Shown: piece by piece, positions 18,028 through 52,199 of the stretch
How the letters are laid out: each line of letters starts with the position of its first letter
How positions within the stretch are numbered: the first letter of the stretch is position 1
Assembly: GCA_036253495.1 (NCBI GenBank)
Contig: GCA_036253495.1_4125.1
Length of the DNA stretch: 64,000 bases
Source: a phage
Direction: 5' to 3' (one strand)
Position numbers and translations under genes: made by a program
The notes under the pieces: generated by a model
Told to the model about the DNA's origin: nothing
Database searches by the model: none
What the model saw: only the letters and a program-made list of their open reading frames with translations

Positions 18028-18049
18028 GGTGGGACAAAGCTGATTTTAG

Positions 18050-18058: not shown

Positions 18059-18110
18059 ATTAGCGATGGCACACGGATTGTGCCTATTGGTCATTACATG
18101 GAGAGTTACA

Positions 18111-18950
18111 ATGATAAACAAGCCGAAGCGTAAGAAGTATCTGAATAACGCAGACTTATTACGTGAAATACATAAAAGTAAGATATCATACTGCTGGCTT
18201 TTGGATAAAAGTTATGGTATGTATGATTATATTGTGTTTCATGAGTCTGAAATCACAGAAGAATTACTTGAAAAGGCAAAAGCAGCACGAATCAAACGTT
18301 TGAATAATGAAATGCTTGATAGTGTTCGCGAAAAAGAGAATATGAGTGCTAAGAAAGCAAAGGAATATGCTGATGAGCACGGTCTATTCGTAAATGATGT
18401 ACCACTGGATGAAGTGGTGATTAGAGTTATCACTGATGAGCACATTCCACCAGATACACGAGTGAATTTTGAACCATTTAAACATTATATCGTTGATAAT
18501 GAAGGTATTCTGTATGAAGTTGTTCGTTCACATTGGAAAGGCGACTTGGAAGATGGCGATTTCTGCTTAACACATGGTAAAATCACAAATGAACTCGGTA
18601 AAATGTTCATTAAACTAGCCGAAGAGATCTCTCACAAATCTAACTACAGAAATTATACGTATTTGGATGAAATGATGGGTGATGCTAGAATACAATTAGT
18701 TAAAAATGCACTTCTCTTTAAAGAGAGTATCTTGTATAAGAAAGATAAACCCGCTGTCCAACTAAATCCTTTCTCATACTATACGTCATTCGTTAACAAT
18801 AGCTTCCGTTCTATTTTGAACAGTGAGAAGAATGTACGTAACATTCGCGACGACCTTCTTGAGATGCATGGTTTTACACCATCACATACAAGACAGATTG
18901 AAATCGAAATGAATATGATTGAAAGGAAAAATGACGATGGCACTATTTGA
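18111..18950 (+). CDS. 55: late sigma factor (T4 gp55-like) with internal extension
   Basis: N-terminus KPKRKKYLNNADLLREI resembles T4 gp55 (KPKYNYVNNKELLQAI) and C-terminal NPFSYYTSFVNNSFRSIL resembles NPHAYITQACFNAFVQRI; start placed at ATG with GGAGAG RBS. Confidence 0.65.
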   Translation: MINKPKRKKYLNNADLLREIHKSKISYCWLLDKSYGMYDYIVFHESEITEELLEKAKAARIKRLNNEMLDSVREKENMSAKKAKEYADEHGLFVNDVPLDEVVIRVITDEHIPPDTRVNFEPFKHYIVDNEGILYEVVRSHWKGDLEDGDFCLTHGKITNELGKMFIKLAEEISHKSNYRNYTYLDEMMGDARIQLVKNALLFKESILYKKDKPAVQLNPFSYYTSFVNNSFRSILNSEKNVRNIRDDLLEMHGFTPSHTRQIEIEMNMIERKNDDGTI

Positions 18951-22766: not shown

Positions 22767-23246
22767 ATGTAGTACTGACAATCCTGTTGAATGCAGAAAT
22801 GCATATAAATTAGAACCTAATCCACTCGAAAATGTAGAGGGTAGATGAGCAGTTCAACAGTGCGATGAGCAAAAGAAACCCGTTAGATGTGGGCATATTA
22901 TGAACCCCTCACGGCGACACGGCTCAATAAAGAACTCCGATAAGCATACAGAGAGTTCCTCGATAGATGTATAAGGATCGCACCTTACCAGATATGCTAA
23001 GGGAGTTTGATGATTCATTTCATTAAACAGCCTGAAGTTTGATTGTATAGACTTTCAGGTGAGTGTCAGGATGTTTAAGACTGACGACCGTTGCACATGA
23101 CTGCGATAGAGAGAAACAGAGCAACCCGCTTTCGTTCTTAATATTTTTTACAATATAATTACGTTTAAATTTTAAGAAATTCGCAATACAATAATACCGA
23201 TGCCATCAGCGTCAAGAAACAGAGACTTAATTGTCTCTTTTTTATT
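22767..23246 (+). ncRNA. candidate non-coding RNA (about 480 nt) between promoter and terminator; identity unknown
   Basis: No ORF longer than about 25 codons with an RBS on either strand; several stem-loops (e.g. CCTGAAGT...ACTTTCAGG, GTCAG...CTGAC); ends at hairpin AGAGAC-TTAATT-GTCTCT plus T-run at 23220-23246. Confidence 0.3.
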
Positions 23247-23473
23247 ATCTTCATTCCCCTGCGGGGGGATGAAATATCCTCAACAAATCCCGTCAAGTAT
23301 TAAATCATTTAAAGTTCTTTATAATTATATTAAAATGAATATGAGTTAACGTAGTTAACGAATATTCTTCAGCTAACGAATGAAATGAGTTAGATGAGTT
23401 CAATATAAATCAAATGAATTCCTTCAAGAATAAATCTTTTAAGATCATAATTTCTTTCATCTACTTTGTAAGT

Positions 23474-23519
23474 AAAAACCCAAAAAAACAAAAACAAAAA
23501 ACCAGCAACAATGTGCTGG
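23474..23519 (-). terminator. rho-independent terminator (minus strand)
   Basis: Minus-strand hairpin CCAGCA-CATTGT-TGCTGG followed by a long T-run (plus-strand A-rich tract 23474-23501). Confidence 0.6.
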
Positions 23520-23532
23520 CTTCTTATGAGTA

Positions 23533-29472: not shown

Positions 29473-29576
29473 TACCTTAAAAATCGCTCTTTTTAAAGCT
29501 TTTAAAAATGACGAATTTTTTCAGTACTAAATAATATCATACTTTATAGGAATTAAATATATCTTTGGAGGATATA

Positions 29577-30419
29577 ATGGCTAATTTAAAACTACTACAA
29601 GAAGCAATCGAAGCTTTTGCTAACGGCGAGCAAGATGTAGCTGATAAAAAAATGCGTAAGTACTTTGTTGAACAAGCACAAGAAATTAACAAAGAACTAG
29701 AAGAAAGCATGGACGACGAAGAATGCTGCGATGAAGACGACAAAGAAGAGAAACTAGAAGAAGACTTCGACGTTTCCCCAGATGCTGGTCTTAATAGTCA
29801 AATCGAATATTCTCTTGGTGAAGAAGACAAGAGTGCTGAAGATGATATCGAATTCCAAGCTGGTGAAGAAGATTCTGAAGGTGAAGTTGGTGCAGAAGGT
29901 GAAGAAGTCCCTTCCGAAGACCAATGGGCTTCCATTCAAGATGCTTTCCGTGGCCTACAACAAATGTTTGATGAAATCTCCGGCGAAGGTGAAGTTGACC
30001 TAGACGCTGAAGAACCAGTAGGTGGCGAAGAAGAAGTTGATCTAGAAGTTGGTTCCGAAGACGGCGGTGATGATTTCGCTGATGTTCAATTCGGTGATGA
30101 AAAAGTTGGTGAGTCTTTCAAACTAAAAGCAGTTGCTGATGTTGATAAGAAAGAAAAAGCTGGTGCAAATACTAAATCCCCAGTTGCTTCCCAAGCTAAA
30201 TCTCCAGTACAAGGCGTAGCTCCAGTAAAAATCGCTAAAAACTCAACTCCAGTAGTTGATGACAAATTTGATGGCGTAGATACTGAATCTCACACCGTAC
30301 CAGAAGATATGAATAATGTTATGGATAGCGGCAAAGGCGTAATGAAAGACGTTAAGAAAGTAACCACTGGTTCTTCTAAGTCTCGTTCCCCACTACCAAA
30401 ATCACAACCAAAATTCTAA
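29577..30419 (+). CDS. highly acidic prohead core/internal protein, tentative
   Basis: Start at ATG with GGAGGA RBS; Glu/Asp-rich; codon usage like other highly expressed late genes. Confidence 0.45.
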   Translation: MANLKLLQEAIEAFANGEQDVADKKMRKYFVEQAQEINKELEESMDDEECCDEDDKEEKLEEDFDVSPDAGLNSQIEYSLGEEDKSAEDDIEFQAGEEDSEGEVGAEGEEVPSEDQWASIQDAFRGLQQMFDEISGEGEVDLDAEEPVGGEEEVDLEVGSEDGGDDFADVQFGDEKVGESFKLKAVADVDKKEKAGANTKSPVASQAKSPVQGVAPVKIAKNSTPVVDDKFDGVDTESHTVPEDMNNVMDSGKGVMKDVKKVTTGSSKSRSPLPKSQPKF

Positions 30420-32349: not shown

Positions 32350-33525
32350 ATGTCACAACTACTAAATGAATCCAAATGGGTAGCAGTTAAAGAGAAACTA
32401 GTTGAAGGTCTTCAAGGTACTCGTAAATCCGTAATGGAAACCGTTCTTGATAACCATCGTAAAGTTATGCTACAAGAATCTGCAACCGCTGGTGCAACTT
32501 CTGCTGGTAACATCGCTACTCTAAACAAAGTGATTCTACCAATTATGCGTCGTGTAATGCCAACCGTTATCGCTAACGAAATCATCGGTGTTCAACCAAT
32601 GACTGGCCCAGTTGGTCAAATCCACACTCTACGTGTTCAATACGCTGACAACGCACCAGGTGTTGTAGCTGGCGAAGAAATGCTATCTCCATTCAAGATT
32701 GCTAAATCTTACACTGGTGAGCTAAACTCTGACAACAGCAACCCACAAGCTGCTCCTACTAGCCAACTAGAAGGTACTATGGGTCGTCGCGTTAACATCC
32801 GTATCCTACGTGAAACTGTTGAAGCGAAATCTCGTCGTCTATCTGCACGCTGGACTGTTGAATCTGCACAAGATGCACAATCTCAACATGGTATCGACGT
32901 TGAAGCTGAACTAATGGCTGCTATTGCACAAGAAGTTACCGTTGAAATCGACCAAGAACTACTAAGCCGTCTACGTGCACTACCTGGTGCTGCTGCTGTA
33001 ACTTATGACCAATCTAAAGTTACTGGCGTTGCAACCTTCGTAGGTGATGAGCACGCTGCTCTAGCTACCCTAATCAACCGTCAAGCGAACGAAGTTGCTC
33101 GTCGTACCAAACGTGGTGCTGCGAACTGGGCTGTTGTTTCCCCAACCGCTCTAACTATTCTACAATCTGCAACTACTTCTAGCTTTGCACGTACTACTGA
33201 AGGTACTTTTGAAGCACCAACTAACGTTAAATTCGTTGGTACTCTAAACAGCACCATGCGTATCTTCGTTGATACCTATGCTTCAGATGTTGAAGATATC
33301 CTAATCGGTTACAAAGGTAATGCAGAAACTGACGCTGGTGTTTTCTACTGCCCATACATCCCATTGATGGCATCTGGTACTGTTATGGACCCTAACACTG
33401 GAGAACTCGTTACAACCTTCTTGACACGCTATGGCTACGTCCAGCTAACAGATTCTACTAGTTCACTAGGTAATGCAGCAGATTATTATTCTAAAATTGC
33501 TATCAAAAACGTTACTTTCATGTAA
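32350..33525 (+). CDS. 23: major capsid protein (gp23-like, compact 391-aa form)
   Basis: IANEIIGVQPMTGPVGQIHTLR, IEAKSRRLSA and YKGNAETDAGVFYCPYIPL align with T4 gp23 IAFDICGVQPMNSPTGQVFALR, IEAKSRQLKA, YKGPNEMDAGIYYAPYVAL. Confidence 0.9.
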   Translation: MSQLLNESKWVAVKEKLVEGLQGTRKSVMETVLDNHRKVMLQESATAGATSAGNIATLNKVILPIMRRVMPTVIANEIIGVQPMTGPVGQIHTLRVQYADNAPGVVAGEEMLSPFKIAKSYTGELNSDNSNPQAAPTSQLEGTMGRRVNIRILRETVEAKSRRLSARWTVESAQDAQSQHGIDVEAELMAAIAQEVTVEIDQELLSRLRALPGAAAVTYDQSKVTGVATFVGDEHAALATLINRQANEVARRTKRGAANWAVVSPTALTILQSATTSSFARTTEGTFEAPTNVKFVGTLNSTMRIFVDTYASDVEDILIGYKGNAETDAGVFYCPYIPLMASGTVMDPNTGELVTTFLTRYGYVQLTDSTSSLGNAADYYSKIAIKNVTFM

Positions 33526-43194: not shown

Positions 43195-43493
43195 TGAAAC
43201 TAAAAATGATTAACGATTATGTTCTTGTTCGTCAGATTGAAGCACAAAACAAAAGTACTGGTGGTATTATCCTCGGTAATGTAGAGCCTCCATGTGTTGG
43301 TATGGTTATTTCTGTTGGTGAAGGTAAAGTACTACCAAATGGTCAAATCGCTGAACATAACATTCGTGAGGGTGATATGGTTGTTTTTGGTCGTTCTTCT
43401 CTGAACACCCCCCTGACTGAAGATCTTGGTGGTGGTGAAGATACATACTATGTAATGAAAATTGAAGAAATCTTTGGAAAGAAAAATGGCTAA
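43195..43493 (+). CDS. GroES-like co-chaperonin (Hsp10; functional analogue of T4 gp31)
   Basis: MKLKMINDYVLVRQIEAQNKSTGGIILG...GMVISVGEGKVLPNGQ...GDMVVFG aligns along its length with GroES ([27 protein letters not shown]...GEVLAVGNGRILENGE...GDIVIF). Confidence 0.7.
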
Positions 43494-44211
43494 GAAAAGG
43501 TTATTACCTTTCTGGATGGTCCCCGCTCATTGGGGACTTTCTGGTAAAGCGAAAGAGATTGCTAAAGCATACTATTACAATGACGATTATGAAGCAGATT
43601 TGAAAGTTGCAGAACTAACATATCTTACTGAATATGAAGTTGATGTTGCACAATTGGACATTAAAAAGAAATATGGTGTTATTGATACACTAAAATATCT
43701 AATTGAACAGGCGGCTGTCGAATTAAAGTACTCTAAGATTACACGTGAAGAGTACGATTTAAAAGTACTTGACGCAAAGTTAAGTACTGATACTATTACT
43801 CAAAAAGAGTATGATATGGAAGTAATCGAGCTAATGCCTGAAGGTGATGATAAACGATTGAAAGCCATTGAGTATGCGTATAAGTATGATGAAATTACAC
43901 AACAAGAGTATTCAAAGGAAATCTATACATTACGTAAAGAGCCTTGGATTGATTTGGATGTAATTTTGAATCCTGATACAAACGAAGTAGAATTTGTATT
44001 TGATTACAATGAATACTTTTGGAAGAAATTAAAAGCCGAAGGTCACCCAGGAACGGATGAAGAAGAGATTATTGATAACTTTGTTCGTGATTTGGGTCGC
44101 AAATTAGCTACTGACGATTATAGTGATAACGAAGATGCAAAGCTAGTGAGTGCGAACGCAGGGTTAGAGAATCTACCTGGTTTACCTGAAGGTTTCAAAT
44201 CATACAAATAA
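43486..44211 (+). CDS. hypothetical protein with internal short repeats
   Basis: About 241 aa; repeated units KITREEYDLKVLDAKLS / TITQKEYDMEVIELMPE / EITQQEYSKEIYTLRKE. Confidence 0.45.
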   Translation: MAKKRLLPFWMVPAHWGLSGKAKEIAKAYYYNDDYEADLKVAELTYLTEYEVDVAQLDIKKKYGVIDTLKYLIEQAAVELKYSKITREEYDLKVLDAKLSTDTITQKEYDMEVIELMPEGDDKRLKAIEYAYKYDEITQQEYSKEIYTLRKEPWIDLDVILNPDTNEVEFVFDYNEYFWKKLKAEGHPGTDEEEIIDNFVRDLGRKLATDDYSDNEDAKLVSANAGLENLPGLPEGFKSYK

Positions 44212-44216
44212 AAAAA

Positions 44217-44240
44217 AGGAGAACAATATGTTCTCCTTTT
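44217..44240. terminator. bidirectional rho-independent terminator between convergent genes
   Basis: AAGGAGAAC-AATAT-GTTCTCCTT hairpin flanked by A-run upstream and T-run downstream. Confidence 0.65.
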
Positions 44241-44254
44241 CTTGTATTAATTTA

Positions 44255-44947
44255 TTAAACCATTGCTGGGATAGATTTGAACATCTTGATACCGAAATCA
44301 CCAGCAGCATCAGCAGCTTGGGATTTTAGGAAGACTTCAGTAACGCCATCTTTTGCAAGCATTGGGATACCAGTTAGATCGTCGATAAGTAGGCGACCTT
44401 CTTCGATTTCAGTACTTGGAACGCCTTGGAAAGATACTAGGTCTTTGTCAAATACGTTCGCACGCTCAACTAGGAAAGTAACAACAGAAGCACTTGCAAT
44501 ATCAACAGTACCAACACTTAGTACACCATCAACTGCGTTAGTGAAACCTTCAACTGCTAGTGGAGCGGAAGCATCATTACCACCGATTTCAGAAGTACTT
44601 AGAACAACTGCACGTTGTTGAACAACATCAACTAGACGTTTAACGTTAGTTTGAGCAGCGTAGGAAGCATTGTAATCAGCTTCAACAGTTGCAACTTCGA
44701 ATGGAGTACCGTCGATACGGATGATACCTTTGTCATTTAGATATTCGGTAATAACTTCAGGAATATCAGTGTTTAGAAAACGTTGTAGACCAGCAAAAGA
44801 ACCAACTGCACCAGTAACACGCACGTTAACGTCACCTAGTTTACTAACAGCGATAGAAGCTAGGGCGTTAGTACCACAGAAATAACCTAGAATTTTGTCA
44901 AAAGAATAACCGTTAATTCGTTCAAAAGAAGTATTAATATTAGACAT
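44255..44947 (-). CDS. abundant-protein-like paralog A (unknown; putative virion component)
   Basis: 230 aa; shares VVQQRAVVLSTSE with the next gene (LLQQRAVLVTTSV); codon usage matches the capsid and scaffold genes. Confidence 0.55.
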   Translation of the reverse strand: MSNINTSFERINGYSFDKILGYFCGTNALASIAVSKLGDVNVRVTGAVGSFAGLQRFLNTDIPEVITEYLNDKGIIRIDGTPFEVATVEADYNASYAAQTNVKRLVDVVQQRAVVLSTSEIGGNDASAPLAVEGFTNAVDGVLSVGTVDIASASVVTFLVERANVFDKDLVSFQGVPSTEIEEGRLLIDDLTGIPMLAKDGVTEVFLKSQAADAAGDFGIKMFKSIPAMV

Positions 44948-44962
44948 GTTAATCTCCTTATA

Positions 44963-45562
44963 TTATAGTTGAACTGGTAGAGCAGCACGAACTTTAATAG
45001 CTACAGCTTTAGCAGCTTCAGCATCACCAACACCATCAGTAGTAACATCTACGAAAGATTTAGTACGGAAGAATTTAGCTTGAGCGATTACTTTAGCTAG
45101 TTCAACAGTTGGATCAACTGGAACAGAGTAAGCAGCACCTGGACGAACATCTTGTTTAGCGAAAACGTCTTGACGTTCGCAGATGAAGGTTAGTGCAACA
45201 GAACCAGCACCGCCAGCAACATCAGCACCAGAAGTACCGAAAGCAACTACGTTACCGCCAACAGTTTTGAAATCCGCTGGGATTACTACGTCAGTGTCAA
45301 GAGCTAGTACAGAAGTAGTAACTAGAACAGCACGTTGTTGTAGTAGTTGGGTTAGCATGAATTGGTTGTATTGTGCGTTAGTGATCGCAGTTTGTAGTGC
45401 TTCATCTTGTAGTTCAGAACCATCGGAAGTTACTTTGGTAGTACCAACTTCAACATCTGCTGGTAGATCAACAACGATAGTTACAAAACCATTATCACCA
45501 CCCCAGTACTCACGGGAGTTAGCAGACATACCATAGTTACGGTTAAAAGAATTAAGACTCAT
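44963..45562 (-). CDS. abundant-protein-like paralog B (unknown; putative virion component)
   Basis: 199 aa; paralogous to 44255-44947; same codon-usage signature. Confidence 0.55.
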   Translation of the reverse strand: MSLNSFNRNYGMSANSREYWGGDNGFVTIVVDLPADVEVGTTKVTSDGSELQDEALQTAITNAQYNQFMLTQLLQQRAVLVTTSVLALDTDVVIPADFKTVGGNVVAFGTSGADVAGGAGSVALTFICERQDVFAKQDVRPGAAYSVPVDPTVELAKVIAQAKFFRTKSFVDVTTDGVGDAEAAKAVAIKVRAALPVQL

Positions 45563-45605
45563 AAAAATCTCCTTGTCAATTTTGTGCAGGACTCTCCTGC
45601 TTAAG

Positions 45606-45685
45606 ATTATTTATCAATTATTTAAAAGCACCCACATAATAAGTGATTTTCTTTCCTTGATTATATGCTATTATTTATCAATTAT
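45606..45685 (-). promoter_or_regulatory. two copies of a 16-nt direct repeat (ATTATTTATCAATTAT) upstream of the paralog operon; on the minus strand each contains GATAAATA
   Basis: Exact copies at 45606-45621 and 45670-45685. Confidence 0.4.
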
Positions 45686-45704
45686 GGGAAGAGACATTTA
45701 TATG

Positions 45705-45713
45705 TGCTATAAT
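45705..45713 (+). promoter_or_regulatory. extended -10 promoter (TGcTATAAT) upstream of RNase H gene
   Basis: TGTGCTATAAT motif about 80 nt upstream of ATG 45792. Confidence 0.45.
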
Positions 45714-45779
45714 TATTAACGAAAAACACGAAAAATGGATTTTCATGGCATCCAGAATGGTAACATCCATCACCGATAA

Positions 45780-47265
<1,486 letters not shown>

Positions 47266-47297: not shown

Positions 47298-52199
<4,902 letters not shown>

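Follow-up and report, generated by a model that had tools for sequence, protein, structure and literature searches.

We analysed a 64,000-nt stretch of phage DNA (contig GCA_036253495.1_4125.1 of NCBI GenBank assembly GCA_036253495.1), called the window below, with the focus on two adjacent genes, P199 and P230, and on the duplicated 16-nt element upstream of them. A preliminary description made from the DNA letters had proposed two minus-strand genes of 230 and 199 amino acids (aa) at this place, and both open reading frames (ORFs) were found as described (Table 1). By megablast, positions 43400-46800 were 99.7% identical to Escherichia phage A4 (ON286972, Asteriusvirus, 355 kb) and 80-85% identical to about 40 further Rak2-like jumbo phages; the source of the window is, as judged by sequence, an Asteriusvirus, a Rak2-like jumbo phage. 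P199 was 100% identical to its A4 orthologue and P230 was 100% identical to a database protein, and the identities of the two proteins were ~76-80% in the phAPEC6 group, ~73% in RaK2 and ~57-59% in Mimasvirus and Eneladusvirus. Both genes lie on the strand opposite to every neighbouring gene, and A4_26 and A4_25 are each labelled 'structural protein' in the A4 record. In A4, a convergent structural gene and GroES border the pair on one side, while a divergent RNase H gene together with the large terminase borders it on the other. The same order, with the RNase H gene pointing away from P199, P230 following P199, and the structural gene and GroES converging on the pair, was observed in A4, phAPEC6, RaK2, CBB and Vibrio phage 2.275.O. 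In this Vibrio phage, a distant marine relative, three tandem genes (228, 184 and 234 aa) occupy the equivalent locus (L007 1135-3206), and the first of them, a putative family member, has AATAAATA and a stem CCAGG...CCTGG in front of it.

The element ATTATTTATCAATTAT occurs in two exact copies, 64 nt apart. Read on the minus strand, both copies are ATAATTGATAAATAAT, with GATAAATA inside. When the 229-nt spacer was simulated 20,000 times with a first-order Markov model, no run gave a direct repeat of at least 16 nt and a fraction of 0.008 gave one of at least 12 nt, indicating that the duplicated element of the preliminary description is real, and its exact coordinates were confirmed. The same description had seen late-type motifs on the minus strand of the repeats, and three lines of evidence support them. 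We found 21 sites of NATAAATA in the window, 14 of them in intergenic DNA, which makes up 5.4% of the window, and most of the others at gene ends directly before the next gene. Nearly all sites lie 7-58 nt upstream of a same-strand virion or morphogenesis gene, and the genes behind them include those for the major capsid protein (MCP), scaffold, protease, baseplate wedge, hub, fibre and a 380-kDa protein; in A4, TATAAATAAT is located upstream of the tail-tube gene. Moreover, the window carries a gene for a gp55-type late sigma factor (18066-18950), which matched PHROG 12791 at 1.5e-151 and PHROG 234 'late sigma' at 3.6e-17, and ATAAATA was independently predicted as the late motif of CBB and GAP32 (PMC5259590). 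Finally, 140 nt of upstream DNA were aligned from 13 phages (Asteriusvirus, Alcyoneusvirus, Mimasvirus, Eneladusvirus and unclassified), in which the proximal TGATAAATAA was invariant (13/13), as was a distal ATAAATA ~64 nt beyond the proximal core (13/13). The exact 16-nt identity is specific to the A4 lineage, while the conserved parts are the ATAAATA cores, whose tandem arrangement is therefore ancient. A recent local duplication was rejected as the origin of the repeat, since both motifs are ancient in the 13-phage alignment. With the spacing known from T4, transcription is predicted to start near 45602 (proximal) and 45666 (distal).

The stem GCAGG/CCTGC begins ~7-8 nt after the proximal core and is paired in all 13 phages, with loops of 3-8 nt, and in RaK2 it shows a double compensatory change to GUAAG/CUUAC (GTAAG/CTTAC in DNA). 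Because the proximal start would be near 45602 under T4 spacing, this hairpin would stand almost at the very 5′ end of the transcript. Stabilising 5′ stem-loops of bacterial mRNAs, such as that of ompA, are hairpins near the 5′ end, and by this analogy the stem-loop found here probably stabilises the mRNA 5′ end. A scan between P199 and P230 revealed neither a promoter nor a terminator, the 15-nt gap holding the Shine-Dalgarno sequence only, so the two genes are predicted to form one operon.

Table 1. Positions of the genes and predicted control elements of the P199/P230 locus in the window.
Feature	Position	Strand	Remarks
P199 gene	44963..45562	-	199 aa, 21.0 kDa, isoelectric point (pI) 4.53; A4_26, RaK2 gp107, CBB_271, phAPEC6 gp210
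P230 gene	44255..44947	-	230 aa, 24.4 kDa, pI 4.38; A4_25, RaK2 gp106, CBB_270, phAPEC6 gp211
Repeat copy 1, predicted proximal late promoter	45606..45621	-	core GATAAATA 45615->45608, 46 nt from ATG
Repeat copy 2, predicted distal late promoter	45670..45685	-	core GATAAATA 45679->45672, 110 nt from ATG
5′ stem-loop GCAGGA-GAG-UCCUGC	45586..45600	-	~2 nt after the inferred proximal start
Shine-Dalgarno sequence AAGGAGA of P199	45568..45574	-	AAGGAGATTT region invariant in 13 phages
Shine-Dalgarno sequence AAGGAGA of P230	44953..44959	-	within the 15-nt intergenic spacer
Bidirectional intrinsic terminator	44211..44243	both	shared with the convergent + strand gene 43486-44211
Early-type promoter GTGCTATAAT (sigma-70, extended -10)	45704..45713	+	serves the RNase H gene; outside the operon

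Both proteins gave full-length profile matches to PHROG 9326, 'virion structural protein' (P230, E = 1e-77; P199, E = 4e-82). The preliminary description had stated that the pair shares core motifs and that the proteins match nothing recognisable; the second statement did not hold, as they belong to this annotated family, whereas the first was borne out by the common PHROG, by BLASTP (34% identity over 86 aa, E = 4e-5) and by profile-profile alignment of the P199 and P230 subfamilies with hhalign (probability 98.9%, E = 3e-17, 176 columns). Since each paralogue forms its own conserved subfamily within the same set of phages and the two profiles align, P199 and P230 are, on this comparison, ancient paralogues, and their duplication is not recent. 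The main difference between them is a helical insertion of ~30 aa after the first strand of P230. A tblastn search with P199 among sequenced phages returned enterobacterial, Xanthomonas and Vibrio phages only, none of them phiKZ-like, and no Pseudomonas or Salicola phage. Pseudomonas phage MIJ3 and Salicola phage SCTP-2 (T = 39) carry MCP relatives at 61-67% identity. A profile search against 1.84 billion representatives, a library without names, gave 42 proteins at E <= 0.001 and no further leads. Scans of both proteins with Pfam, NCBIfam and PADLOC gave zero matches, and the label 'hemagglutinin repeat' of phAPEC6 gp211 was dismissed as unsupported because these scans were empty. The identity of P199 was 80% where that of the MCP was 97% (PBECO4-type phages), and 58% where that of the MCP was 91% (Eneladusvirus). 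P199 and P230 evolve ~4-8 times faster than the MCP, which is compatible with an exposed accessory protein and is not diagnostic of one.

Structure prediction, which the preliminary description had proposed as a check, gave confident AlphaFold2 (AF2) models from the family alignments for both proteins, with a predicted local distance difference test score (pLDDT) of 88.2 and a predicted template modelling score (pTM) of 0.82 for P199, and 82.5 and 0.79 for P230. In both, an alpha+beta core is built around a long helix, and the N-terminal ~20 residues are disordered. Residues R8, G11, G22 and N24, which are invariant across both subfamilies, lie within this N-terminal arm, and an arm that is conserved yet disordered is as expected of a segment that becomes ordered upon a common partner. 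The fold was unmatched in the PDB, as Foldseek with the AF2 models found nothing below E = 0.1, and PDB sequence searches gave noise only (E >= 0.04). A BFVD structure search returned the family itself alone, plus a marginal 135-aa protein from Atu_ph07. None of the known decoration folds (gpD, Soc, Ig-like Hoc, OB-fold Dec and beta-tulip) was matched among the structure searches. The family is confined to its clade, and no relative of it has been solved.

We scored codon usage as the log-likelihood per codon under MCP and scaffold usage versus window-wide usage, for the 54 genes of at least 90 aa. The MCP (0.362), P199 (0.340) and P230 (0.237) ranked 1, 2 and 3 of the 54. With the MCP as the sole reference, the scores were 0.394 for the MCP, 0.365 for P199, 0.246 for P230, 0.194 for the head protein at 29577, 0.065 for the scaffold, -0.027 for the tail sheath (A4_547) and -0.148 for the tail-tube gene (A4_549). 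The capsid- and scaffold-like codon set that had been attributed to the pair was therefore recovered, exceeding even that of the scaffold, sheath and tube. This gradient suggests that demand for the two products is nearer to that for the MCP than to that for tail components, and the order points to a copy number nearer to the 1620 MCP subunits than to ~150 tail subunits. Published virion proteomes agree. In RaK2, CBB and phAPEC6, mass spectrometry has shown the orthologues to be part of the virion. In phAPEC6 (PMC7247149), peptides covered 69.8% of gp210, 69.9% of gp211, 74.9% of the MCP and 68.0% of the sheath; in CBB (PMC5259590), they covered 91.3% of CBB_270, 56.4% of CBB_271 and 68.1% of the MCP. 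In RaK2, ORF106w and ORF107w were abundant virion proteins that migrated on gels at their predicted mass (PMC3622015), indicating that they are uncleaved. High late expression, as the preliminary description had supposed, is thus supported by both the codon ranking and the proteomes, and for the orthologues late expression and incorporation into the virion are experimentally established.

The lack of processing was examined against the head protease of this phage, which is predicted to be T4-like. The MCP (32350-33525) carries a T4-type cleavage site, LQE/S, at residue 43, which predicts a mature protein of 37.3 kDa, matching the 37 kDa of the mature 121Q MCP. The motif [LI]xE occurs 23 times in the scaffold and four times in the core-like protein at 29577. 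P199 has a single such motif, buried in a conserved TF(I/L)xER strand, and neither P199 nor P230 has an N-terminal one, which fits the uncleaved RaK2 bands. Orthologues of the pair are shown to be present in the virion in very large numbers and uncut by the head protease.

Based on these results, we propose that the locus is a self-contained late operon whose products are both capsid-level accessory proteins, an explanation to which, taken whole, we give even weight for and against. Host RNA polymerase with the phage gp55-type late sigma factor would start at two tandem T4-type promoters (GATAAATA cores), and the main transcript would probably begin ~2 nt before the conserved stem-loop, which would protect the 5′ end of this mRNA. 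Translation of the acidic 21- and 24-kDa paralogues would then be driven from two strong ribosome-binding sites, and transcription of the operon would end at the bidirectional terminator. The 121Q and phAPEC6 capsids show an extra protein layer and a dimer-shaped density at each hexamer centre, with no gene named for either (PMC7247149 for phAPEC6). We tentatively favour the view that P199 and P230 are capsid cement or decoration proteins at about the stoichiometry of the MCP, possibly as a pseudo-symmetric heteromer. They would be the second protein layer or the hexamer-centre density of these T = 28 capsids, anchored there by the disordered conserved N-terminal arm. A pair of paralogues with the same fold would look two-fold symmetric at 10 Å resolution.

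This proposal has to be weighed against other places in the virion, since we infer, rather than observe, that the proteins are on the capsid and not inside the head or on the tail. From mass spectrometry, the authors of the phAPEC6 study were unable to tell which protein forms the decoration layer (PMC7247149), and codon bias is a mere proxy for copy number; both points weigh against a capsid site. Inside the head, P199 and P230 might instead build the 91 x 18 nm radiation-sensitive rod of 121Q and phAPEC6, with the DNA spooled around it and no relationship to the phiKZ family, which we think unlikely. No proteins have been named for this inner body, and no phAPEC6 protein resembles the inner-body proteins of phiKZ. 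A solid rod of this size would weigh ~19 MDa, which we estimate as ~400 heterodimers, compatible with high abundance. The inner-body proteins of phiKZ are encoded by tandem paralogues, a layout that the pair resembles, and the divergence of P199 and P230, much faster than that of the MCP, also speaks for such a role. However, the proteins are not processed, the RaK2 gel masses being those predicted and the N-terminal LxE targeting and cleavage motif not being present, whereas the head protease does cut the internal proteins of T4 and the inner-body proteins of phiKZ (Thomas et al. 2012, as cited in the literature). Moreover, proteins of pI 4.4-4.5 are unexpected in contact with packed DNA, and a codon bias above that of the scaffold suggests more than a few hundred copies. 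An inner-body role is possible but weakened, and it is doubtful that the pair are the main blocks of a second, independently evolved inner-body family in T = 28 Rak2-like jumbo phages, unprocessed and of a fold without a solved relative. On the tail surface, P199 and P230 could decorate the sheath or form the base of the whisker-like fibres ('hair') of phAPEC6, CBB and 121Q, structures that have no assigned genes, and they are abundant and unprocessed as such a part might be. We consider this improbable: the phAPEC6 tail decoration is present at a few tail levels only, implying a low copy number in conflict with the MCP-like codon bias, and the pair is found in all Rak2-like phages, including RaK2, for which no whiskers had been reported, and GAP32, which may lack them. 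A whisker-specific protein was rejected on this distribution. The authors of the RaK2 study tentatively proposed gp106 and gp107 as tail-tube proteins in 2013, from size, abundance and predicted beta content (PMC3622015), and 21-24 kDa does resemble known tube proteins. However, A4_549, 550 and 551, directly downstream of the sheath gene A4_547, match PHROG tail-tube families (1.7e-83, 3.3e-79 and 1.4e-221), the genes for P199 and P230 stand well apart from the tail module and greatly exceed the sheath and tube genes in codon bias, and the fold is not tube-like, with no gp19/Hcp fold found in either protein. We therefore rejected the tail tube, to which we give hardly any credence. In A4, three consecutive paralogous genes of tail-tube families (227, 258 and 364 aa) follow the sheath gene (L008 12482-15134, outside the window); this triple module is unusual, and only its first gene has a moderately high codon bias. 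An anti-defence function, one of the roles the preliminary description had entertained, found no support and was rejected, as PADLOC, NCBIfam and Pfam gave no defence-related match.

The late-promoter reading of the repeats can also be questioned. The start positions at the repeats are predicted from the core motif and T4 spacing, and in the literature on this clade we found neither a transcriptome nor a high-resolution capsid structure. For the stem-loop, the compensatory changes come from a single lineage (RaK2), which is modest evidence, and the local fold of -9.5 kcal/mol is unexceptional (z = -1.4). The distal core overlaps a weak extended -10-like TGCTATTAT of sigma-70 type on the + strand, and its conservation may partly serve the RNase H gene. 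The repeats could be operators for a regulator, or parts of divergent + strand early promoters of the RNase H gene, rather than late promoters. Copy 2 lies ~20-40 nt upstream of the GTGCTATAAT early promoter and is flanked by TGCTATTAT, the TG of which is kept in most relatives, and the promoter scan found a weak + strand TTATCA-N18-CATAAT at copy 1. Nevertheless, all seven ATAAATA bases are invariant in both copies in the 13 phages, including positions outside the + strand -10 hexamer, and the same core is found upstream of MCP, scaffold, baseplate and fibre genes. No other site in the window matches the 16-mer with fewer than two mismatches, which argues against a general operator. We consider it rather improbable that the repeats are not late promoters, and the two readings are compatible and can both hold.

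The spacer is predicted to be a compact divergent control region for early and late transcription. The extended -10 family GTG[C/A]TATAAT was found 7 times in the window, 6 times in intergenic DNA, including the site at 45704, and probably represents the host sigma-70 early promoter class of the phage. The + strand sites at 18049, 22752, 45704, 50956, 51032 and 61078 stand before genes that include those for the late sigma factor, RNase H, ssb and primase. A further sequence feature is the palindrome AGTACT, with 123 sites versus ~22 expected by base composition (5.6-fold), for example at 29521, 31115, 32289, 11117 and 38541. These sites are mostly in frame 0, as AGT-ACT codons, and TCAGTAC occurs in 9 intergenic places; at three of these it directly adjoins late promoters or ribosome-binding sites, namely those belonging to the genes for the MCP, the scaffold and the head protein at 29577. 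The enrichment could be an artefact of codon use, or else mark a site of processing or modification.

Two other parts of the window deserve mention. Compared with phAPEC6, the gene for the large-terminase ATPase (47977-49615) has one inserted nucleotide at ~48293-48296, which splits it; the sequence is 'CAGATGCGGAAAAAC' here and 'CAGATG-GGCAAAAC' in phAPEC6, and the insertion is inside the Walker-A stretch (ARQMGKTT). ORFs 47977-48315 and 48278-49615 together correspond to the intact terminase gene of phAPEC6 and CBB, and the A4 record carries the same split (A4_29/A4_30), which is either a shared sequencing error or a real frameshift. The 514 nt at 23019-23532 hold no ORF of at least 50 aa and several hairpin-like G+C-rich segments, and in A4 the numbering of genes restarts at this point (from A4_591 to A4_1). 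Neither Rfam nor tRNA scanning of the complete window, this region included, gave a hit; the region could be a genome end or a regulatory region.

The P199/P230 locus is in essence already known, as the family is annotated, its abundance in virions is published and the late motif was predicted before. Our analysis adds the rejection of the tail-tube proposal, an argument from processing, codon bias and charge for the capsid surface over the inner body, a fold without a solved relative, and a conserved cassette of tandem late promoters and a 5′ stem-loop. It leaves current understanding unchanged, and for the specialist the locus is an ordinary one. Given their MCP-like codon bias and proteomic coverage, the lack of processing, their presence in every member of the clade that was examined and a confident, unmatched fold, P199 and P230 are the strongest candidates for one of the gene-less structures of 121Q and phAPEC6, be it the layer, the hexamer-centre density or the inner body. 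The pair offers a concrete target for fitting in higher-resolution maps, and the tandem promoters with the stem-loop form a compact, conserved high-output cassette that could be reused in engineering these phages. Alternatively, the two proteins may form a heterodimeric cement lattice of a new fold, which would let a T4-type MCP build a T = 28 shell.

Compared with known systems, the predicted promoters resemble the late promoters of T4 (TATAAATA, dependent on gp55, gp33 and gp45) in having an 8-bp -10-type core without a -35 element, in the presence of the phage's own gp55-like sigma gene, and in the position of the motif upstream of morphogenesis genes. In both copies GATAAATA agrees with TATAAATA at 7 of 8 positions, the first base being free here (N-ATAAATA) and G in both copies; unlike in T4, two promoters stand in tandem, 64 nt apart. 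As in ompA-type 5′ stem-loops, a stable hairpin lies within ~2 nt of the predicted 5′ end of an mRNA that is expressed at a very high level. Like the decoration and cement proteins T4 Soc and Hoc, lambda gpD, phage L Dec and P74-26 Dec, P199 and P230 are small, abundant and unprocessed; like them, too, the pair is read from a late promoter of its own, at a distance from the core head genes, and has a disordered yet conserved terminal arm, which might take on order at the capsid. They differ from Soc, Hoc, gpD and Dec in that no sequence or fold similarity was found, in being two paralogues rather than one protein, and in that their capsid site is inferred. With the phiKZ inner-body proteins (gp93-97 family) they share the organisation as abundant tandem paralogues and a jumbo-phage head with an inner body, but neither sequence similarity, as also noted for phAPEC6 (PMC7247149), nor proteolytic processing. 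The closest counterparts are the other Rak2-like pairs of PHROG 9326, namely RaK2 gp107/gp106, GAP32_265/264, CBB_271/270, phAPEC6 gp210/gp211, and 121Q gene 618 with its neighbour, which share sequence, gene order, strand, upstream promoters and stem-loop with the locus described here and differ from it in nothing material.

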